Shown here piece after piece: positions 29,135-41,851 of a DNA stretch of 64,000 bases (positions are counted from its first letter, which is position 1; every line of letters starts with the position of its first letter). Under the pieces are notes generated by a model. That model ran no database searches, was not told where the DNA came from, and saw only the letters and a list, made by a program, of their open reading frames with translations. This stretch comes from Lachnospiraceae bacterium (lineage in GTDB: Bacteria > Bacillota > Clostridia > Lachnospirales > Lachnospiraceae). The stretch lies in the NCBI GenBank assembly GCA_051880475.1, contig JBJEOA010000055.1, positions 28,629-92,628 of the forward strand, in the 5' to 3' direction. The position numbers and the translations under genes were made by a program.

Positions 29135-29773
29135 TTAGAATCCTAATTCTTCTCCGACTAAAACGACTTTAATGCGGCCAGGTACTCTGGAAAAACGAGT
29201 GATGACAGTCTGAGCACAGATACAGTCTGGGCTTAGACAATCTCCGCAGATACCTGTCATAGCACAAGGTGTTTTGCATCCGAGGCGAATTGTATTAGGA
29301 GGACAGGCCTCTCTCTTAATTCGTGCAATCGCGTCCTCCACGTCATTTGCCAGTTTATTCATGCTTGCAACGATAATTACATTTTCAGGACCGTGGCAGA
29401 GTAAAGAGACGCGGTTTCCATTTCCGTCGATATTGACAAGCTCGCCGTCCATTGTGATAGCGTTAGAGCTCATAAGAAAATAGTCTGCGAGATAGGCATC
29501 TTTGAAAAATTCTTTCATAGTTCCCTCTCTTTTTGCTTTGTCTCTGTCAAGGACGATATAATCTTGATTATCCTTTATAAAATCATTAAATCCAATTTCA
29601 GCTAGAGTTACAGAGCCTCCCCATGTGACAGAAGCACCTTTTTTTAGGTATGATTTTACTTTTTCTAAAGCTTCTTCTTTTGTTTGTACATAGCTTGCCT
29701 CAAAGCGGCGATTTTCCATTTTTTCTATTATTTTTTCAGCTAATAATTTTTTTGCCTGTTGTTTTGGTGTCAT
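29135..29773 (-). CDS. LUD-domain (lactate-utilisation LutC-like) protein with Cys-rich C-terminus
   Basis: Pattern VTWGGSVTL...SSNAITMDGELVNIDGNGNR..., plus the C-terminal cluster CKTPCAMTGICGDCLSPDCIC. Confidence 0.65.
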   Translation of the reverse strand: MTPKQQAKKLLAEKIIEKMENRRFEASYVQTKEEALEKVKSYLKKGASVTWGGSVTLAEIGFNDFIKDNQDYIVLDRDKAKREGTMKEFFKDAYLADYFLMSSNAITMDGELVNIDGNGNRVSLLCHGPENVIIVASMNKLANDVEDAIARIKREACPPNTIRLGCKTPCAMTGICGDCLSPDCICAQTVITRFSRVPGRIKVVLVGEELGF

Positions 29774-30061
29774 ATTATCTTTCCTTTCTGTTGCCTTTCA
29801 TTACAAATTTATAATTGGTGAGATTAAAATTTTTTATAGATGATAAAATCTTTCATTATTAATTATAACAAAAAAGAAAAAATCTCTCAAGAAAAATATA
29901 ACCTGCATGATTTCTAAATAAATTTTAAGAATGATATGAAGTATTTTTCGTAAAATTGAAGATTTAAAAATAAAATACGAAAAGAGGATGAAAAATTGAT
30001 GAGAATTTGATATACTAAAAAAAGCAAGAACAAAAGGGCAAATTAGAAAAGGAAAAATAGT

Positions 30062-33000
30062 ATGAATGATAGAATTATATGGATGACAAAATATCAGTTA
30101 AAACAAGAAAAGTTTTCCATTGCTTTATCGGATTCAAATATAGAAATAGAAGTAGAAGCCGGATCATCGTATGAAGGCTCTTTTTCTATGACTAGTGACT
30201 GTGAGAGCGAGATTATAGGAGAGATTATATCAACACATGATCTTGTTGAGGTAAAGAATAAAGTAATTGAGGGAAAACAAGTAGAAGTTTCCTATTTTTT
30301 CAAAGGTAAGCTATCTCTAGTGGGACAAGAAATCACAGGAAGCTTTTATTTAATTACAAATGCGGGAGAGTATGAAATTCCGTATAAAATAAATATTGTA
30401 GCTCCGACTTTAAAATGTAGCTATGGAAAGATTAATACATTAGATGAGTTTGCTGATTTGACAGCAGAAAATTGGGTAGAGGCAAGAGAACTTTTATTTT
30501 GCGAAGATTTTTATAATGTATTTTTAAAAGATGATATTCACTTAAGAGAAGTCTATTACGAGCTCATAAAAGGAAAAGAGAGAGACTGTATTTTAGAGGA
30601 GTTTCTAAAGGCAGCAGGCTGTAAGGAAGTTATAAAACTGCAGTGTGAGGAACAAAAAATAACTCTAAGTGAGGAGGAAAAGCATAAGGATATTTGTATT
30701 AAAAAGACAGAGTGGGGATATATAAAAGGAAATGTCCGCATGAAAAAGGGATGTTTTGGAGTCTCTTGTCAAAATTTTACAACAAGTGATTTTAGCGATG
30801 AAACTTTATGTATCCATGTTTTTGTGGAAGAAGATTATTGCGGGGGAAATATCAATTTAGAAGATGAATTAATCATAGAGACAGCGTATGAGAAACTAAT
30901 TATTCCAATTCGCTATAAAAAATCTGTGGACGAGCAAGTCACTATTGCAAAGCGTACAGATTTAGAGGTTCAAAAGGCGTATTTTACAATCTATAAGCAA
31001 TACTTACTTTTTAGAACAGGTAAGAGTGAGTTTTTAGAGGCAGCAGACTATATCAAATCTAGTATTTCTGTTTTAGAGAAAAAAAACGAGGAGCCTTATT
31101 TTTGTGAACTTCTTCGATTCCATATCGCCATTTTAGGACAGGAAGAGGGATTAGATAATTTTGCGCGAAAGATAGAATCTCGAAGAAAAGAGTATCTTTC
31201 CATGAAAGATATTCGAGAATATTATTATTATCTCATAGCTTTGTATAAGAAAGATCACTCATCTATATTAGAGGCAGTTGTCCAAATTCAAGATACATTT
31301 GAAAAAAGATGTACACCAATTTCTTTCTTCTTTCTCGTCTATTTAGATAAGGAATTAATTCAGGATAAATATCGCCAGTATCAAATTATAAAAGAGTTTT
31401 ATAAACAAGGGTATTGCACTTGTTATCTTTATTTTGAAGCTTTAGAATTATTGAACCAAAATTCAAACTTTATGGAACAAATAGGAGAGTTTGAAATCGG
31501 TCTATTTGAGTGGGGAATGCGTTATGGATATATATCTTTTTCTCTATCTTACCGTTTTACACAGCTTGTATCGCAAGAGAAGCATTTTAGTAAGAGATTA
31601 TTCCGTATTTTAGAGAGTCTTTATCAGGTAGAAGCGGATTCTGTCTATTTATCTGCAATTTGTTCTATGCTCATTCGTGGCAATCGAATTAGCAGAGAGT
31701 ATCATGAGTATTTTGAAAAGGGAATTGCAGCAAATTTAAGATTGGTAGGATTAAATGAATATTATATTCGCAGTATGGATTATAATTCTTATCCAATTTT
31801 ACCAAAGACATTACTTGTCTATTTCACATATAGTAATAGCCTTGATTATATGGAGAGAGCATACCTTTATACGAATGTATTTTTGAATAAAGAAGAATAT
31901 GAGTTTGTCTATGATACCTATGAGATAAAAATTCAGGAGTTTATGAAAGAACAGCTTATGCTTGGAAATGTGAATGAGCATCTTGTAATTTTATATAAAG
32001 AATTTTTGAAGGATAAGACGGAACATGATATCGTAAAATTGATGCCAAATATTGTTTTCCGAAAGAAATTAGTTTGCCATAACGAAAATATGCGCGGAGT
32101 TTATGTGAAACATGATCAGGAAGGAAAAAGCATTTACGTTCCTCTTATTGACGGAAAATGTTATATTGACTTATATACGAATACTTACACACTTGGTTTT
32201 ACGGATAAGGGTGGAAATTGGTATATGAAGGGCATCAATTATGAAATTATTGAACTATTAAATCAAGAAGATTATATGGATATTTGCAGAAAACAATGCT
32301 TAGAGGAGGAGAGAGTTCTCGTTCACAGCGTGGAGAGTATGCTAAACTCTGAGGAAAAAACAGAAGAGTTTGTTCAAGTTGGTGCGCTTGTTTTATATAA
32401 TCGCCATGTAAAACAGTGGGTAAAAGAAAGAGCAATTGAGTATATTTTGGATTATTATTATGAGAGAGGAGACTTTGAGAATTTAAAGAAATATCTCGGA
32501 AAAATTACTTATAAAAATGTTCGTCCGATTTATCGAAATACCCTAATGGATTATTATGTTTCTACGGGTGAGATTGAAAATGCCTATTTTGGAACAGAGC
32601 TTTATGGAAGCGGTAAAATGAATGATGAGCAGTTATATTATATATCTAAATTTGGAATTAATATACAGAAAAACCAAAGGGATGTTTTAACTGCTAATAT
32701 GGCTTATCAGGCATTTTTGGGAGAAAAATATGATAATCAAACGATAGAATATTTGATGGAGCATTATGCAGGAAAACTTTTAGATTTGCTTCGCATTTGG
32801 AATATAGCAAAACAAGAAAATATTGAGCAATCTGAATTTGAAAAGAGAATTTTACTTCAAGCTCTATTTACAAGAAACGAGCAAAACGATCAGGTATTTG
32901 AAGTTTTCTTATCTTATTATGAGAAAGAGCCAGAAGGCAAAGTAATTTATAGTTATATTCCTTATGTGGCAAGTGGATATCTTATCGAAAGTAAAAAAGT

Positions 33001-33604
33001 CCCAGAAAGTTTCTTTGAAATTCTTGGACAAGAGTGCAAAAATCGTCGTGTCAGAGATTTAAAGAGTAAAGTTGCATATTTATATTATTATTCAGATAAA
33101 GAAAGTTTAAGTCAAGAAACGATAGAAACGATAAAAGTGCTTATGAGAGAAATGTTTGGAAATCATATGATGTTTCCTTTCTTCCTTCAATTTAAGGATA
33201 TTGTAGATTTTCCAAAGGGAATTCTTGCAAAAACTTTTGTCACGTATCACGGTGAGAGCAACCAAAATGTGCAATTTTTCTATACCTTAAAAGATGAAAT
33301 TGATACGTATCATCACCGAGTGCAGATGAGAGAGGTATTTGATGGCATTTATGTATATGAAATGTATATCTTCTCAAGTGAAGAATTTGATTATTATATT
33401 ATGATAGATGGAAAAATTCGAAGAGGAAAAGAATATATTACAATCGAAAACTTCTACGAGAAAAATGAGGAGACGAAGAATACAAGATTTGCATTGCTTG
33501 ATCAGATTTTAGAAGAAAAAGATGAAAATAAATCAGAACAAGAGATGGGACAGTATTTGGAGACTTTACAAATCCTAAATGATAATTTAGAAATGATGTT
33601 ATGA
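30062..33604 (+). CDS. 1180-aa protein of unknown function (two N-terminal beta-sandwich-like modules, long helical-repeat body, C-terminal beta module, acidic tail)
   Basis: Long uninterrupted ORF with no P-loop, catalytic or TM motif seen. Repeated module endings GEYEIPYKINIV and EKLIIPIRYKK. Confidence 0.8.
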   Translation: MNDRIIWMTKYQLKQEKFSIALSDSNIEIEVEAGSSYEGSFSMTSDCESEIIGEIISTHDLVEVKNKVIEGKQVEVSYFFKGKLSLVGQEITGSFYLITNAGEYEIPYKINIVAPTLKCSYGKINTLDEFADLTAENWVEARELLFCEDFYNVFLKDDIHLREVYYELIKGKERDCILEEFLKAAGCKEVIKLQCEEQKITLSEEEKHKDICIKKTEWGYIKGNVRMKKGCFGVSCQNFTTSDFSDETLCIHVFVEEDYCGGNINLEDELIIETAYEKLIIPIRYKKSVDEQVTIAKRTDLEVQKAYFTIYKQYLLFRTGKSEFLEAADYIKSSISVLEKKNEEPYFCELLRFHIAILGQEEGLDNFARKIESRRKEYLSMKDIREYYYYLIALYKKDHSSILEAVVQIQDTFEKRCTPISFFFLVYLDKELIQDKYRQYQIIKEFYKQGYCTCYLYFEALELLNQNSNFMEQIGEFEIGLFEWGMRYGYISFSLSYRFTQLVSQEKHFSKRLFRILESLYQVEADSVYLSAICSMLIRGNRISREYHEYFEKGIAANLRLVGLNEYYIRSMDYNSYPILPKTLLVYFTYSNSLDYMERAYLYTNVFLNKEEYEFVYDTYEIKIQEFMKEQLMLGNVNEHLVILYKEFLKDKTEHDIVKLMPNIVFRKKLVCHNENMRGVYVKHDQEGKSIYVPLIDGKCYIDLYTNTYTLGFTDKGGNWYMKGINYEIIELLNQEDYMDICRKQCLEEERVLVHSVESMLNSEEKTEEFVQVGALVLYNRHVKQWVKERAIEYILDYYYERGDFENLKKYLGKITYKNVRPIYRNTLMDYYVSTGEIENAYFGTELYGSGKMNDEQLYYISKFGINIQKNQRDVLTANMAYQAFLGEKYDNQTIEYLMEHYAGKLLDLLRIWNIAKQENIEQSEFEKRILLQALFTRNEQNDQVFEVFLSYYEKEPEGKVIYSYIPYVASGYLIESKKVPESFFEILGQECKNRRVRDLKSKVAYLYYYSDKESLSQETIETIKVLMREMFGNHMMFPFFLQFKDIVDFPKGILAKTFVTYHGESNQNVQFFYTLKDEIDTYHHRVQMREVFDGIYVYEMYIFSSEEFDYYIMIDGKIRRGKEYITIENFYEKNEETKNTRFALLDQILEEKDENKSEQEMGQYLETLQILNDNLEMML

Positions 33605-33751
33605 TGCCAGGGGCAAAAGGTCAAAAAATGGTTCATATTTATATGGTAAGGTATTTGACGTTAGAAACTGCTAAATATGAGGAAAAATAAAGAGAGGCAG
33701 AGTTTGAATGTTTTTAGGATTGCAAAAATAGAAAGAAAGGTTGCATGAGAA

Positions 33752-34834
33752 ATGGCAGAAAAAAAAGATTTAATGTATATCATTGGAATTGATATAAAAG
33801 TCGATCAAGTGCAAATAAGTGTTTTTCAAGAAATCTATAAAGAGCCAATTGAAATTATTAAGCAGTATAAAAATGATTTGTATGAGCAGATAGCACAGGT
33901 TTTTTTAGAAAAAGAAATCCGAATGGAGCAGGTAAGAGAAGTTGTTTTTACGACAGATGAGACGACCAAAAAGGTGAGACAAAGTTATATAGAACTTGCC
34001 AAAAGGCTTGGAGTTCCAAAGGAAAAAATTTCTATTATTACACAGGAAACCGCATATTTACACTATATTTATCGACAAGAAGAAAAAATATGGGATCACA
34101 GAGTATTACTTTTTGATTACGGAAGAGACAAGATTATTTGCAGAAAAATGGAAATCACGCAAAGATCTGTTCCAATGCAGATTCAACTTACCGAGATGGA
34201 TGTATCTGTTCCAGCTTTGTTTACAGGCACGCTAGATAGTAGGGATGAAGTCTTTTCAAAAGTAATTAGAAAAGTAATTGGCAAGGAAGCTATAACGAGT
34301 GTATTTTTAACTGGATCAGGATTTTACGGAAACTGGATGAAAAAATCTTTAAAAGTTTTGTGTTCAGGAAGAAGAGTTTTTTTGGGAGAAAATTTATACT
34401 CAAACGGAGCTTGTTTCTTTAGTGCCTATAAAGATAAGGTGAGAGAACCTGGGGAAGAACCAATTGTAAAAGCGAGAGATTTGGTTATCCACGATATTGG
34501 CTTAATGAGTGGCGATGGCGAGAATGAAAAATTTATTGCCATTACGGAATGTGGAAAAGAATGGTATAATACAAGAGGAAAAATCGAAGTCATATTAGAC
34601 CATGGCAGTCGAATTGAATTCTTATTTAAAAATCGATTTGCAGATGAGATGCAAAAAGAAATTTTAGAAATTTCTTCTCTTCCGGCAAGACCGGATAAAA
34701 CAACGAGACTTGAGATAGAGATTAAATTTCAGGGAGCAAATCAGGGACAGATTTTAGTGAGAGATTTAGGATTTGGTCTGATTTATCCAGCTACCAATAA
34801 AGTATTTATGAAACAATTTACATTATTATCATAG
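33752..34834 (+). CDS. Compact degenerate Hsp70/actin-fold (ASKHA)-like protein
   Basis: IIGIDIKVDQ (phosphate-1-like), LLFDYGRDKI (phosphate-2-like), VFLTGSGF (adenosine-like), and C-terminal RLEIEIKFQGANQGQILVRDLGFG resembling the Hsp70 SBD-beta signature. Confidence 0.7.
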   Translation: MAEKKDLMYIIGIDIKVDQVQISVFQEIYKEPIEIIKQYKNDLYEQIAQVFLEKEIRMEQVREVVFTTDETTKKVRQSYIELAKRLGVPKEKISIITQETAYLHYIYRQEEKIWDHRVLLFDYGRDKIICRKMEITQRSVPMQIQLTEMDVSVPALFTGTLDSRDEVFSKVIRKVIGKEAITSVFLTGSGFYGNWMKKSLKVLCSGRRVFLGENLYSNGACFFSAYKDKVREPGEEPIVKARDLVIHDIGLMSGDGENEKFIAITECGKEWYNTRGKIEVILDHGSRIEFLFKNRFADEMQKEILEISSLPARPDKTTRLEIEIKFQGANQGQILVRDLGFGLIYPATNKVFMKQFTLLS

Positions 34835-34843
34835 AGGTGAATC

Positions 34844-35665
34844 ATGGGAAGAATATTATTATGTAGTTCTAAGATTGCAAGCCAACCCTATGAATTTGCA
34901 GATATCGGAATTTCCGTCAGTTCGTACGAAGAGCTTTGTTTCTTTTTAAGAACGTATTTAGTTATTTGGATGAATACGAAAAAAGATGAGAGATTAGCAG
35001 ATTGGATTGAAAAAGAGCTAGAAATGAAATCTTTAGCGGATAAAATACGTCAGTATCATAATAAGAGAGAAATGATTTTGGAGATTATAAAAAATGGCGT
35101 TTATTTTAATGAGCAGGAGATTTTGGAAATAGAGCAAGAATATGACAATATTCTTGGAAAAAAGATGTGGGAAAAAAAGCTTGAGATGGGAAATATTTAT
35201 CTCTACCATAAAAAATATGAGAGAGCATTAGAGTGTTATGATTATATTTTAATGCAAGAAGATAGAGAGCTTACAGAGGAGATTATCGGGAAGGTGTATC
35301 ATAATTGTGGTATTGCCCACGCTTACTCTTTTGAATTTGACCAGGCGGAAGAAAGCTTTTATAATGCCTACGAGAAGATTTGGTCAGAAAAGTCATTAAA
35401 CTCTTATCTTCTTATGTTATGTATGAATAATAAAGAAGAAGAGGCGATGAAAAAAATAAAGGCGATGGGACTTACGAGGGAGAGATATAATGCAATCTTA
35501 GATGAAATCCATATCTCATCCCGCACTTATAAGGGAACAGCAGATTATTTGAAACTTCAAAGAGGAATTTTTAATAAGGAAAATGGACAGAGTAGTTCTT
35601 ATGCCCGAAAAAAGAAAGAAATTTTGAAAAAATGGAAAAAAGAGTTTCGCTCAGAATTAGTATAA
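34844..35665 (+). CDS. TPR-like helical protein with basic C-terminus, unknown function
   Basis: RBS GAGGTG, 9 nt after the previous stop. TPR-like GNIYLYHKKYERALECYDYIL and CGIAHAYSFEFDQAEESFYNAYE. Confidence 0.7.
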   Translation: MGRILLCSSKIASQPYEFADIGISVSSYEELCFFLRTYLVIWMNTKKDERLADWIEKELEMKSLADKIRQYHNKREMILEIIKNGVYFNEQEILEIEQEYDNILGKKMWEKKLEMGNIYLYHKKYERALECYDYILMQEDRELTEEIIGKVYHNCGIAHAYSFEFDQAEESFYNAYEKIWSEKSLNSYLLMLCMNNKEEEAMKKIKAMGLTRERYNAILDEIHISSRTYKGTADYLKLQRGIFNKENGQSSSYARKKKEILKKWKKEFRSELV

Positions 35666-35672
35666 GAAATAC

Positions 35673-35701
35673 TTGCATTGTTTTTCAATTTATACTATTC
35701 T
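35673..35701 (+). promoter_or_regulatory. Weak candidate promoter for valS
   Basis: TTGCAT (35673-35678), 17-nt spacer, TATTCT (35696-35701). Only a 4/6 match at -10. Confidence 0.3.
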
Positions 35702-35717
35702 ATAGAAATATAAGAGA

Positions 35718-35749
35718 GTTAAATACTGCTAGCTTAGGCAGTATTTAAC
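35718..35749 (+). terminator. 12-bp perfect hairpin (extendable to 15 bp) between the unknown operon and valS
   Basis: GTTAAATACTGC, loop TAGCTTAG, GCAGTATTTAAC. The tail CTTTAAAATT is only weakly U-rich. Confidence 0.5.
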
Positions 35750-35776
35750 TTTAAAATTATAATGGAGGAAGAAGAA

Positions 35777-38719: not shown

Positions 38720-40009
38720 ATGACTTATCAAGAGGCACAACAGTATATTTTAGATATACCGAAATTTAGTAAAAAAACTGGATTGGATAATATAAAAGAA
38801 TGTTTAAAAAGACTTAAAAACCCACAGAATCATTTTCATACCATTCATATTGCTGGTACGAATGGAAAGGGCTCTGTTTGTAATTATTTAGACTCTGTAT
38901 TAAGAGAGGCGGGGTATCGCACTGGAATGTTTACTTCTCCACATCTTGTGACGATGAGAGAGAGAATGAGAGTGGATGGCGAGCCCATTAGCGAGGAGAA
39001 ATTTTTAGAAATATTTTTTCGAGTAAAATCAGTCGTAGATGAGATGAGACAAGAGGGTCTTTTGCATCCTTCTTTTTTTGAGTGGATTTTTCTTATGGCA
39101 GTTTTATTCTTTGAAGAGGAGAAAATACAAGTTTGTATTTTGGAGACAGGACTTGGAGGACGTCTTGATGCCACAAATGCGGTGGAAAGTGATGCCTCCG
39201 TTATCACCTCTTTAAGCTATGACCATATGCAGTATTTAGGAGATACTTTGGATAAAATTGCAGCAGAAAAAGCAGGAATCATAAAAAGAAAAAAGCCATG
39301 TTTTTCTATTTGGCAAAAAGAAGAGGCGAGACAAGTTTTGGAAAAGGTGGCGAGAGAGAAAGAGAGTCCATTTCATTTAGTCGATAAAGATTCCATTAAG
39401 GGCTATAGAGAAGAAGGTGATGGGATTGTATTTTGGTTTGGAGAAAAAAAGGAAGAATACCATATTTTAACAAAAGCATACTATCAAATAGAAAATGCGG
39501 CATTAGCAATTACTGTTTTAGAGGGTTTATTTCCTAAAATTCCTCAAGAAGTCATAAAAAAGGGATTGAAAAAAACTTTGTGGGAAGGTAGAATGAATAG
39601 TGTGAGTCCAAGTATTATTATAGATGGGGCACATAATGAAGATGCTATTGAAAAGTTTTGCACTACGATACAAAAATTTTATTGTGTAGAGAAAAAAAGT
39701 CTTTTATTTGCGGTTGCCGAGGATAAAGATTATGTGAAAATTATCCAATACCTATGTGAGAATTGTCAGTTTGAGAAAATTATGGTGACGCAAATTTACG
39801 GTGCGAGGGCAACTTCAATAGAAACGATTTTTAATCTGTTTCGACAAAATACAAATACAGATATATGGGTAGAGAAAGATTTAGAGAAAGCATATGAAAA
39901 GATGAAAAATAGTCTAAAAAAAGATGAGCTGCTATTTTGTGTGGGCTCACTCTACTTAGTAGGGAGTATTAAGGCATTGGAAGAGAGGAAGGGTAGAGCA
40001 AATGATTGA
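38720..40009 (+). CDS. folC: Bifunctional folylpolyglutamate synthase / dihydrofolate synthase
   Basis: IHIAGTNGKGS P-loop, FTSPHL, GLGGRLDATN, IIDGAHN. Confidence 0.9.
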   Translation: MTYQEAQQYILDIPKFSKKTGLDNIKECLKRLKNPQNHFHTIHIAGTNGKGSVCNYLDSVLREAGYRTGMFTSPHLVTMRERMRVDGEPISEEKFLEIFFRVKSVVDEMRQEGLLHPSFFEWIFLMAVLFFEEEKIQVCILETGLGGRLDATNAVESDASVITSLSYDHMQYLGDTLDKIAAEKAGIIKRKKPCFSIWQKEEARQVLEKVAREKESPFHLVDKDSIKGYREEGDGIVFWFGEKKEEYHILTKAYYQIENAALAITVLEGLFPKIPQEVIKKGLKKTLWEGRMNSVSPSIIIDGAHNEDAIEKFCTTIQKFYCVEKKSLLFAVAEDKDYVKIIQYLCENCQFEKIMVTQIYGARATSIETIFNLFRQNTNTDIWVEKDLEKAYEKMKNSLKKDELLFCVGSLYLVGSIKALEERKGRAND

Positions 40010-40400
40010 TTTTAAAAAGGAACTGGAAAAATTTAAGCCATGTATGAATACTGATGAGGTAGAAGAAGCAATCTATGGCAGCGATTTGAAAGACTTAACG
40101 GATATCATGAGAGAAGTGATAGAAGAGTTTAGGAAAAATGAAAAAATAAACGAAAATGAACTTGCAGTAAAGATTAAGACAGATATAAAAGAAGAACTAA
40201 AAGAAGAAGTGTCACATCATACCTTCCTTGTATCAGGAGAACAAGTAGAAAATGTGGAAGGAAAAGAAGAAACTCTTAGTGGGATAGAGACTGACAGTCA
40301 GCTAGAAAAAATAGAGCAAGATTCAAAAGAGGAAGTAACTCAACTTATACAAAGCGAGAATGGAAACGATAGTGAAGAAGATAAAGGTGGTATTAAATGA
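40002..40400 (+). CDS. Acidic E/K-rich 132-aa protein, unknown function
   Basis: 8-nt overlap with the folC end and a 4-nt ATGA overlap with the next gene. No TM or motif. Confidence 0.55.
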   Translation: MIDFKKELEKFKPCMNTDEVEEAIYGSDLKDLTDIMREVIEEFRKNEKINENELAVKIKTDIKEELKEEVSHHTFLVSGEQVENVEGKEETLSGIETDSQLEKIEQDSKEEVTQLIQSENGNDSEEDKGGIK

Positions 40401-41851
40401 AATGTATGAAATGTAATAGCAATCTGACAGAGAGTGGATATTGCAATCAGTGTGGATTTAATATATCTCATTTAATTAAGTCAAAAAATACATCCGGTTG
40501 GTACTATAATCGTGCTTTAGAAAAGGCGAAAAATCGAGAATTAAGTAATGCGGCTGCTCTTTTAGAGATTGCTTTAAGTTTTGATAAGGAAAATATTGAT
40601 GCGAGAAATCTTCTTGGATTGATTTATCATGAGATGGGACAGATTGCAAAAGCGATGCATCAGTGGGTCATTAGTATCAATATTGATATAGAAGATAATA
40701 TTGCTATAAAATATTTGCAACAATATCAAGAAGATGAGCATGCTATGCAAAAGATAGATAGGGGCGTAAATTTATACAATCAGACTCTTTATAGTGCGCG
40801 TCTTGGAAAAGAGGGAATGGCACTTCTAAAAATTGAGGAATGTTGTTTCGTAATTCCAAACTTTGTAGATGCACATTTACTTAGAGCTCTTCTTTATATG
40901 AATAAAAAAGATTGGGAGCAGGCGAAAAAAGCTATCAAAGATGTCTTAAAAATTGACCGATATAATCCAACGGCAGTTCGTTATTTAAAGGAAATCCCAG
41001 AGTATAATATAGATAAGGGATATAAAGATGCCTTGAACGCTCTCTTGCCAGAAGTAAAAAAAGAGGAAAAGAAAGAGATAGTAAAGGCAACTGAGCATGA
41101 AAAAGGAAAAGAAATAAAAAAAGAAACCAAAAAAGAAGCTGTCAAGGAAGAGAAAAAGGAAAAAACAGCAAGAGGCTATGTCAAAATAATCGGAGGTCTT
41201 GTGGCAGGCATTATGATGGGTGTTATCATTATGTGGGCTATGCTTGTTCCTATGAATCAATCTTTTGAAGAGCAGTTTAACTATGTAAAAAATCAAATAA
41301 ATCAAAATACTGCACAGGCAAATCCTTCTAAGTCTACAGAGAGTGAGAAGGAAAATGGCACGACACAAGATACACAAGACACAAAAGATACGCAAGTAAC
41401 TGCGGAGATAGTAGATTATACAGGTAAAGATGACAAAAAAGGTATTATGGATTATATGATAATAGCTATGGGTCACTATAAAGATGGAAATGCTGTCAAG
41501 GCGGCGAAGGCTTTAATAAAAGTAGATGAGGATATGTTAAAATCTGATTCTTCTAAGGAAAAATACGATGAGATTAAAAAATCTACTTTCGGAGAGGCGT
41601 CTACACAGCTTTATAACTCAGGTATGGAATTATACAATGAGAGAAATTATGATGAGGCGGCAAAGGATTTTAAATTAGCATATAAAATCGACGATAGTAA
41701 TGTCGAGGCATATTATTTCCTTGGACTTTGCTATCAAAATACAGATCAGGTAGAAAAAGCAAAAGAAGTATACGAAGAGATTAATAATAAATTTAAAGGT
41801 TCCGACAGAGAACACGATGCAAAAGATCGTTTAAGACAGATGGGATATTAA
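40397..41851 (+). CDS. Zinc-ribbon / TPR / single-TM / TPR protein, unknown function
   Basis: N-terminal CMKC-x9-CNQC ribbon. TPR-like helices and a K/E-rich linker. TM IIGGLVAGIMMGVIIMWAMLV. C-terminal TPR (YNERNYDEAAKDFKLAYKID, AYYFLGLCYQN). Confidence 0.7.
   Translation: MKCMKCNSNLTESGYCNQCGFNISHLIKSKNTSGWYYNRALEKAKNRELSNAAALLEIALSFDKENIDARNLLGLIYHEMGQIAKAMHQWVISINIDIEDNIAIKYLQQYQEDEHAMQKIDRGVNLYNQTLYSARLGKEGMALLKIEECCFVIPNFVDAHLLRALLYMNKKDWEQAKKAIKDVLKIDRYNPTAVRYLKEIPEYNIDKGYKDALNALLPEVKKEEKKEIVKATEHEKGKEIKKETKKEAVKEEKKEKTARGYVKIIGGLVAGIMMGVIIMWAMLVPMNQSFEEQFNYVKNQINQNTAQANPSKSTESEKENGTTQDTQDTKDTQVTAEIVDYTGKDDKKGIMDYMIIAMGHYKDGNAVKAAKALIKVDEDMLKSDSSKEKYDEIKKSTFGEASTQLYNSGMELYNERNYDEAAKDFKLAYKIDDSNVEAYYFLGLCYQNTDQVEKAKEVYEEINNKFKGSDREHDAKDRLRQMGY

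Follow-up and report, generated by a model that had tools for sequence, protein, structure and literature searches.

What do the three consecutive genes directly upstream of valS-folC in this Lachnospiraceae genome encode, and do they act as one unit? The genes, here called P1, P2 and P3, are plus-strand open reading frames (ORFs) at 30062-33604, 33752-34834 and 34844-35665 of the 64,000-nucleotide (nt) stretch of contig JBJEOA010000055.1 that we analyzed (the window), and their products are 1180, 360 and 273 amino acids (aa) long. The ORF listing matches exactly the coordinates and strand given by a first-pass annotation of this DNA, which had described a three-gene operon for a giant scaffold-like protein, a mini-Hsp70-like protein and a tetratricopeptide repeat (TPR)-like protein, and had proposed a non-enzymatic assembly module possibly linked to sporulation or the envelope. 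The 9-nt gap that it reported between P2 and P3 is confirmed, and ribosome-binding sites (RBS) can be read before both genes: GAGGTG lies ahead of P3, and the P2 RBS AGAAAGAAAGG is kept, together with the P2 start, among Blautia loci. On balance, we narrowly favor the reading that the cluster encodes a Lachnospiraceae-specific, vertically inherited, non-enzymatic complex around a pseudo-Hsp70, probably expressed during vegetative growth.

The argument starts from P2, which we divide into a reduced nucleotide-binding domain (NBD) and a substrate-binding domain (SBD) on the basis of Pfam, an AlphaFold2 (AF2) model and Foldseek:

33752..34834, plus strand: P2, DUF5716 family, predicted lidless and catalytically degenerate mini-Hsp70, short form (Pfam, AF2, Foldseek)
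33752..34447, plus strand: predicted reduced actin-fold NBD-like domain of P2, aa 1-232 (secondary structure, deletion at the IB position, motif statistics)
34463..34831, plus strand: predicted SBD-beta-like sandwich of P2, aa 238-360 (AF2 strands 238-357, Foldseek, motif LPxRPxKTTRL...DxGFG)

We found that P2 belongs to the family PF18980 (DUF5716_C), which it matches over aa 64-358 at E 4e-85 and 285.7 bits (curated Pfam cut-off 34.7 bits). Its AF2 model, built on a 70-sequence alignment, has a pLDDT of 90 and a pTM of 0.85, and in a Foldseek search of the PDB each of its top 49 matches was an Hsp70 (best E 1.5e-14), aligned over both the NBD and the SBD. These matches include DnaK, BiP, Hsc70, Hsp110 and Ssz1 (5mb9, and 6sr6 with a pseudo-substrate). 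At the level of sequence, the best PDB matches of the DUF5716 profile (70 sequences) are to DnaK, at E 1.4e-4 to 1.5e-3 and in the N-terminal part, and a sub-threshold register places the LPxRPxKTTRL...DxGFG of P2 on the SBD motif GIPPAPRG...DKxTG of DnaK. An approximate sequence of E. coli DnaK gave a weak partial match to the DUF5716 hidden Markov model, and the Pfam HSP70 family (PF00012) had no match in P2 at E <= 1.

Column statistics on the 70 family members, read in a residue register taken from the PDB DnaK profile matches, revealed that the conserved Hsp70 ATPase machinery is not retained. Specifically, the phosphate-1 motif has x-[DE] in place of TT, and in the window protein also Lys at G16; a GGG or Gly-rich loop, Thr and Asp are all missing from phosphate-2; the equivalent of Glu171 is variable; and the Lys70 region shows a hydrophobic position in long forms of P2 and is deleted in short ones. 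The NBD-like part also measures about 232 aa and does not form a four-lobed NBD of about 380 aa. In the window protein about 60 aa are deleted at the position of lobe IB relative to the long forms, and judging from domain length and secondary structure in the model, lobe IIB is probably lost as well, which would leave the IA and IIA core alone. The SBD-alpha lid and the C-terminal tail are absent, as P2 stops at aa 360, just past its last strand (351-357). What can still be recognized is the phosphate-1 skeleton G-I-D-L-G, the Gly of the adenosine motif and the SBD pattern 'GxP..P......IE..F...D.G.G', and seven residues of the SBD are near-invariant (R313, T317, R319, D338, G340, F341 and G342). 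The modeled fold therefore identifies P2 as structurally an Hsp70 derivative, and together with the decayed catalytic motifs it bears out the earlier description of P2 as a degenerate Hsp70-like protein.

The third gene encodes a protein that in many members of its family is recognizable as a TPR protein:

34844..35665, plus strand: P3, 273 aa, with an N-domain, two to three TPRs (about aa 109-190) and C-terminal helices (family alignment, profile)

Taken by itself, the window protein falls below the TPR threshold (21.8 bits vs 27). A profile of 16 family members, however, aligns at positions of about 110-190 with consensus TPR proteins (1e-9 to 1e-11), which establishes at least two consecutive 34-residue motifs through the family, and TPR_2 was detected in 9 of the 16 members; the TPR-like helices noticed in the first pass are thus real. 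Among the longest PDB matches of this profile are the Hsp70-binding TPRs of CHIP (1e-5) and Hop. The family alignment also shows an N-terminal motif M-G-[RK]-x-I-L-C (MGRILLC in the window), an invariant EE at positions 29-30 and a C-terminal helix motif WKxEYR, which in the window protein reads WKKEFR at its end.

Gene order ties P3 to P2. In a sample of 21 non-redundant Lachnospiraceae loci, the order P1-P2-P3 was invariant (21/21), even at 25% identity, and in three loci P2 and P3 form a single ORF of 717-747 aa that consists of a full-length P2 followed by a full-length P3. These fusions occur in Anaerocolumna and Lachnoclostridium-like genomes:

L011, 11831-13984: P2-P3 fusion
L012, 11676-13919: P2-P3 fusion
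L016, 11789-13984: P2-P3 fusion

A close relative of the fusion carriers, L003, has P2 and P3 as separate genes. As a Rosetta-stone case, the fusion suggests that P2 and P3 act together. We had also considered that the three genes are unrelated neighbors, and dropped this idea on the conserved order and the fusion.

In 15 loci, P3 is followed directly by a fourth gene, P4. Its product of about 340-430 aa consists of a coiled coil, a hairpin of two transmembrane helices and a second coiled coil, with conserved coiled-coil motifs on both sides; no profile relatives of P4 were found in Pfam or the PDB. The gene is missing in the window, in Blautia locus L006 and in loci L020 and L022 (that is, in Blautia and two other lineages), and a tblastn search of the 64-kb window detected no homologue of P4. 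P4 is present in 15/15 loci with a long P2 (404-449 aa, or fused) and absent in 4/4 loci with a short P2 (348-365 aa), and in a neighbor-joining tree the short forms occupy at least two clades. This co-variation of P4 with P2 length suggests that P4 and the IB-like lobe of P2 function jointly. The 'three-gene operon' of the first-pass annotation therefore stands as a co-conserved unit across related genomes, with the amendment that the window, which has neither P4 nor a long P2, holds a reduced three-gene variant of a commoner four-gene module. Its suggested link to the envelope gains indirect support from the membrane protein P4 in relatives, and this support does not extend to the window, from which P4 is absent.

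The largest protein, P1, is predicted to be a cytoplasmic scaffold of several domains:

30062..33604, plus strand: P1, DUF5717 family, cytoplasmic, without transmembrane segment (ORF, Pfam, AF2 pLDDT 81)
30119..30433, plus strand: predicted immunoglobulin (Ig)-like beta-sandwich 1 of P1, aa 20-124, ASH/MSP/PapD-like (AF2 strands, Foldseek)
30434..30637, plus strand: helical linker, aa 125-192, with the EEFL...K motif (AF2 helices 127-184, conservation)
30638..30931, plus strand: predicted Ig-like beta-sandwich 2, aa 193-290 (AF2 strands 193-286, hhalign)
30932..32059, plus strand: first half of a predicted TPR-like alpha-solenoid, aa 291-666 (AF2 helices 301-665, Foldseek)
32060..32263, plus strand: predicted small inserted beta-domain, aa 667-734 (AF2 strands 667-731)
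32264..33211, plus strand: second half of the predicted alpha-solenoid, aa 735-1050 (AF2 helices 735-1044)
33212..33601, plus strand: predicted C-terminal beta-domain, aa 1051-1125, and acidic helical tail, aa 1126-1180 (AF2)

P1 matches PF18984 (DUF5717_N) over aa 1-867 (E 1e-192, 642.4 bits) and PF18983 (DUF5717) over aa 879-1170 (E 7e-58, 196.7 bits), both with curated cut-offs of 25 bits, so that the DUF5716/DUF5717 families dimly recollected in the first pass were indeed the right ones. The AF2 model (13-sequence alignment, pLDDT 81, pTM 0.53) agrees with the architecture it had read from the letters, namely two like beta-sandwiches, helical repeats, a C-terminal beta module and an acidic tail. 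The two N-terminal sandwiches, which it had described as sharing one pattern, are homologous duplicates (hhalign probability 96.3%, E 1.8e-9), and hhalign found no sequence relation between them and the other beta-domains of P1. Two features that the first pass had not noted are the helical linker between the sandwiches and the small beta-domain at 667-731, which divides the solenoid into two halves; the C-terminal strands span 1057-1123, the tail helices 1142-1179, and the last 55 residues have a net charge of -9. A surface or secreted role for P1 was dropped, since both a signal peptide and a transmembrane segment are absent; this holds for all three proteins of the window (maximum KD19 <= 1.22), as the first pass had stated.

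Conservation in P1, assessed on a 76-sequence alignment, runs the full length of the protein and is mostly of aromatic, Gly and Leu residues. It peaks at the N-terminal 19 residues, which are modeled with low confidence, at the linker between the Ig-like domains and at residues of about 530-610. The linker is among the most conserved segments (17.6% of its positions are at least 80% identical), and F130, A141, F150, Y165, E179, E180, F181, L182 and K188 are at least 90% identical. No cluster of catalytic-type residues was seen in this alignment; the pattern looks structural and suggests that P1 has no catalytic triad or metal site. In one locus (L022, 5891-8933), P1 is called as two genes of 126 and 890 aa (about 1016 aa in total), in the clade with a 348-aa P2, and the split marks a frameshift or pseudogene, or else a shorter variant of P1.

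Searched against the PDB with Foldseek, the N-terminal tandem of P1 resembles Ig domains of the ASH/MSP/PapD-like kind, including hydin-type central-apparatus proteins, CEP192 SPD-2, OCRL1 ASH, CsuC and the Csu/YadV pilus chaperones, at E 2e-7 to 1e-4. With identities of 5-13%, this is a likeness at the level of the fold and implies no function; PapD-like chaperones are moreover periplasmic, whereas P1 is cytoplasmic. The helical body is similar to the TPR scaffolds Ski3, Ctr9, SYF1 and IFT-A, but at low TM scores (<= 0.13 on the query); the Ig-like matches likewise have low TM scores. No full-length structural analogue of P1 was found in the PDB, and a viral structure library returned generic tandem Ig/BACON-like matches to the N-terminus alone.

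The non-enzymatic nature proposed for the trio is upheld by all profile tests. No enzymatic Pfam family matched P1-P3, and none of the three had an NCBIfam match; PADLOC and PHROGs gave no match for the cluster; single-sequence PDB searches with P1, P2 and P3 returned nothing significant; effector domains, whether nuclease, GTPase, McrB/McrC or other, are absent from P1-P4; and within the cluster, to which this search was confined, P1, P3 and P4 contain neither a DnaJ nor a GrpE domain. Our literature search found no relevant paper on DUF5716, DUF5717 or their PF accessions. Both families are already catalogued as DUFs. New are the recognition of DUF5716 as an Hsp70 that lacks the lid and is catalytically degenerate, a description of the domain folds in DUF5717, the four-gene module with its reduced three-gene form, the P2-P3 fusion and the joint loss of P4 and the IB-like lobe.

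How is such a cluster inherited? The named carriers are all Lachnospiraceae (Blautia, Lachnoclostridium, Anaerocolumna, Herbinix, Anaeromicropila populeti and Eubacterium sp.), and the P1 of the window is 84-88% identical to proteins of Blautia metagenome-assembled genomes. The DUF5717 family comprises 3330 clusters at 50% identity (E <= 1e-3; 1221 at E <= 1e-30) with very uniform lengths of about 1175-1200 aa. So many clusters of uniform length fit a protein that nearly every member of one bacterial family has, rather than one of patchy distribution. Pairwise identities follow those of valS (Spearman rho 0.75 for P1, 0.41 for P2 and 0.67 for P3), and P1-P3 are 25-36% identical where the valyl-tRNA synthetase (ValRS) retains 71-77%. 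Because the identities track valS at a faster rate, the comparison indicates that the cluster is vertically inherited and rapidly evolving. No matches to the cluster were found on plasmids. Four matches filed as 'Bacteriophage sp.' (MT835486.1, MT835988.1, MT837190.1 and MT835719.1) are UNVERIFIED records from human faeces that carry DUF5717 homologues, and we rejected them as evidence for phage carriage. MT835486.1 (our locus L023) has P1-P2-P3-P4 followed by valS, and is therefore a bacterial Lachnospiraceae contig misfiled as phage; its valS is split into two ORFs.

Two elements outside the coding regions bear on expression:

29988..30016, plus strand: candidate sigma-A promoter with -35 ATGAAA, a 17-nt spacer and TGaTATACT (consensus scan, consensus-level)
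35715..35752, plus strand: 16-bp hairpin between P3 and valS (-26.3 kcal/mol, z -3.87 vs shuffles)

The region 5' of P1 is AT-rich, as had been noted (a spacer of 288 nt, 29774-30061; GC 0.27 in 29500-29999). Within the candidate promoter, the extended -10 element has its TG at 30008-30009 and TATACT at 30011-30016, and the block 29988-30016 is also kept in the Blautia locus L006. Extended -10 sigma-A elements (TGnTATAAT-like) occur 5' of P1 in 6 of 15 loci, compared with 0.46 expected (0/300 shuffles reach 6), and full -35/-10 sigma-A patterns are likewise found in 6 of the 15 non-redundant loci. In contrast, strict consensus patterns for sigma-E, K, F and G, derived from Bacillus/Clostridium, were found in none of the 15. 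Judged from these promoter sequences, the cluster is probably expressed during vegetative growth. A 212-aa gene on the minus strand (29135-29773), divergent from P1 and kept in L006, shares the AT-rich spacer. The spacer between P1 and P2 (33605-33751) measures 147 nt in the window and is shorter in L006 (68 nt) and L005 (31 nt); the 80-115 nt by which it is longer occur in this genome alone and include a 29-codon ORF that overlaps the P1 stop.

At the other end of the cluster, the hairpin that the first pass had placed at 35718-35749 with 12-15 bp proved real and slightly longer. It is maintained in the sister Blautia locus L006 through two compensatory changes, and about 70 nt before it (in the spacer 35666-35776) are 100% identical between the two, which exceeds the flanking coding DNA. 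No T-box was found in this spacer with Rfam, and no known Rfam RNA element occurs in the window at gathering thresholds. The hairpin may act as a weak terminator for the cluster, as a leader element of valS or as both, and the spacer looks like a valS promoter with a leader element of unfamiliar type. For valS itself, the second ATG (35777) is the probable start, with GGAGG at 35764-35768 at RBS distance and a product beginning MAKELDK, while the mechanical ORF start lies at 35762. Downstream, the window (40002-41851) shares with L001, L003, L006, L009, L016 and L020 a synteny of valS, often folC, a small acidic protein and, last, a protein that combines a zinc ribbon, TPRs and a transmembrane helix in about 460-490 aa. 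In the window this uncharacterized TPR membrane protein lies just upstream of spoIIAA-spoIIAB-sigF.

Several points weigh against the reading of the cluster as a non-enzymatic complex around a pseudo-Hsp70. The structure models are those of P1 and P2 as monomers, and physical contacts among P1, P2 and P3 are presumed; the domain arrangement of P1 is uncertain, in keeping with its pTM of 0.53; the P2-P3 fusion probably arose once, among closely related species; the evidence on promoters stays at consensus level, and the sporulation-sigma patterns were strict ones from Bacillus and Clostridium; and very fast sequence evolution would also suit a conflict system. Finally, the equivalent of Asp14 is kept in 58/70 and that of Asp122 in 47/70 family members, and Gly188 of the adenosine motif is invariant, so that P2 may still bind nucleotide. 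This last point also speaks for an active chaperone system, in which P2 would be a minimal ATP-driven Hsp70, P3 its TPR co-chaperone and P1, a very large multi-domain protein, the assisted client. Such a system would fit an Hsp70 fold with NBD-like and SBD-like domains, the invariance of F191 and W195 as well as G188 near the adenosine motif, and the presence of the CHIP and Hop TPRs among the longest matches of P3. DnaK does share with P2 the actin-fold NBD, the linker and the SBD-beta sandwich, but P2 has 360 aa vs about 640, has neither SBD-alpha lid nor C-terminal tail, apparently lacks lobe IIB and (in the short form) IB, and does not conserve the equivalents of Lys70, Glu171, Thr199 and Asp201 or the Gly-rich phosphate-2 loop; the cluster also encodes no DnaJ (J-domain) or GrpE-like partner. 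Similarly, the center of P3 is a true TPR unit as in CHIP and Hop, but P2 offers no EEVD-type ligand at its C-terminus, and fused forms have no free P2 C-terminus at all. P3 further differs from TPR co-chaperones and scaffolds by an extra conserved N-domain without known relative. We consider an active chaperone unlikely.

A distinctly unlikely explanation, in our view, is the one toward which the first-pass annotation leaned, a mother-cell-expressed module for sporulation or spore-envelope morphogenesis that would be the positional analogue of spoVID-ysxE, which we take to sit immediately upstream of valS-folC in B. subtilis. The trio lies directly upstream of valS-folC, spoIIAA-spoIIAB-sigF follows about 6 kb downstream in the window, the architecture is scaffold-like, and the named carriers all fall in the Lachnospiraceae, a family that includes many spore formers. 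The slot is however all that the two clusters have in common. The cluster proteins have no LysM, SpoVID or kinase-like (YsxE, CotS/APH) domain in Pfam, and the promoter type differs, with sigma-A-type elements enriched and sporulation-sigma consensus, including that of sigma-E, in 0/15 upstream regions. Nor is the linkage to valS conserved in DUF5717 loci: valS follows immediately in 11 of 21 loci and is missing from the sequenced flank of 8, while 2 contigs end too early to show it, so that it is not adjacent in 8/19 informative loci, and in L003 and L016 it carries its own T-box leader. The downstream synteny of valS, folC, the small protein and the TPR protein is ordinary family-level gene order. 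What our literature search confirmed of this pair is that spoVID and ysxE are discussed together. The sporulation link, an argument from position, is thus not supported. A conflict or anti-phage system, with P1 as sensor and P4 as membrane effector, seems to us very unlikely. It has a precedent in the type III CoCoNuT proteins CnuD/CnuCD, which combine a degenerate Hsp70-like NBD/SBD with HEAT repeats, fused or separate depending on the genome (PMC11090510). The combination of a degenerate Hsp70-like unit with helical repeats, and its fused or split state, parallels P2-P3, and the membrane coiled-coil protein P4 and the fast divergence of P1-P3 relative to ValRS would fit as well. The core of CoCoNuT systems is nevertheless the McrB GTPase and McrC (DUF2357), to which nuclease or RNA-binding modules are added, and neither an McrB-like GTPase and DUF2357 nor any such module or other effector domain is present in P1-P4. 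The cluster has no PADLOC or PHROG match, is absent from plasmids, and its 'phage' matches are misfiled bacterial contigs; it is chromosomally fixed and vertically inherited, with divergence that follows valS, and its 3330 uniform-length clusters fit near-universal presence in the family better than a patchy distribution.

If the cluster does encode a non-enzymatic complex around a pseudo-Hsp70, how might this complex work? We propose that P1 would serve as a large cytoplasmic platform, in which a TPR-like superhelix in two parts is combined with the duplicated Ig domains of ASH/PapD-like fold and with two more beta-domains. P2 would not be a cycling chaperone and would instead act as a permanent peptide clamp through its conserved SBD-beta, holding an extended segment of a partner. 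The model for this role is Ssz1, an atypical Hsp70 that forms a stable structural subunit of the yeast ribosome-associated complex with Zuo1 and holds a pseudo-substrate in its SBD. The analogy has limits, as Ssz1 has a full-size NBD, ATP binding, a J-domain partner and a ribosomal location, none of which is seen for P2. The leading candidate for the clamped segment is the hydrophobic conserved N-terminus of P3 (MGRILLC), which in the fused proteins comes after the P2 SBD and a short linker; the conserved, low-confidence N-terminus of P1 is another. P3 would be a TPR adaptor in physical contact with P2, and its TPRs, together with the solenoid and Ig domains of P1, could provide additional docking surfaces. 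Where P4 exists, which is the case in most Lachnospiraceae, it would anchor the complex on the cytoplasmic side of the membrane, with the IB-like lobe of P2 as the probable attachment point; the Blautia version would have lost both P4 and this lobe to become a reduced three-part form. Our best guess for the process served is a membrane-proximal structural or assembly platform. More tentatively, it is possible that the cluster represents an uncharacterized, Lachnospiraceae-wide and usually membrane-tethered machine with a dead Hsp70 as its clamp and a role in cell architecture (envelope, division or organelle-like organization); if true, this would be a bacterial pseudo-chaperone scaffold without counterpart among characterized bacterial systems.

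The proposed complex makes specific predictions: P2 and P3 should be in contact, as suggested by their fusion, P4 should contact the IB-like lobe, as suggested by their joint loss, and P2 should have no ATPase activity. A stripped-down Hsp70 that is kept for its SBD would lengthen the short list of structural pseudo-Hsp70s, which includes Ssz1 and CnuD. Lachnospiraceae are among the most abundant human gut bacteria, and their cell biology is almost unexplored. In them, a protein of about 1,200 aa has not changed in length over more than 3,000 sequence clusters, and the genes appear to have housekeeping-type promoters and to be inherited vertically. Should the cluster indeed prove to be a structural machine specific to this family, it would offer a useful way into the morphology and physiology of the Lachnospiraceae.

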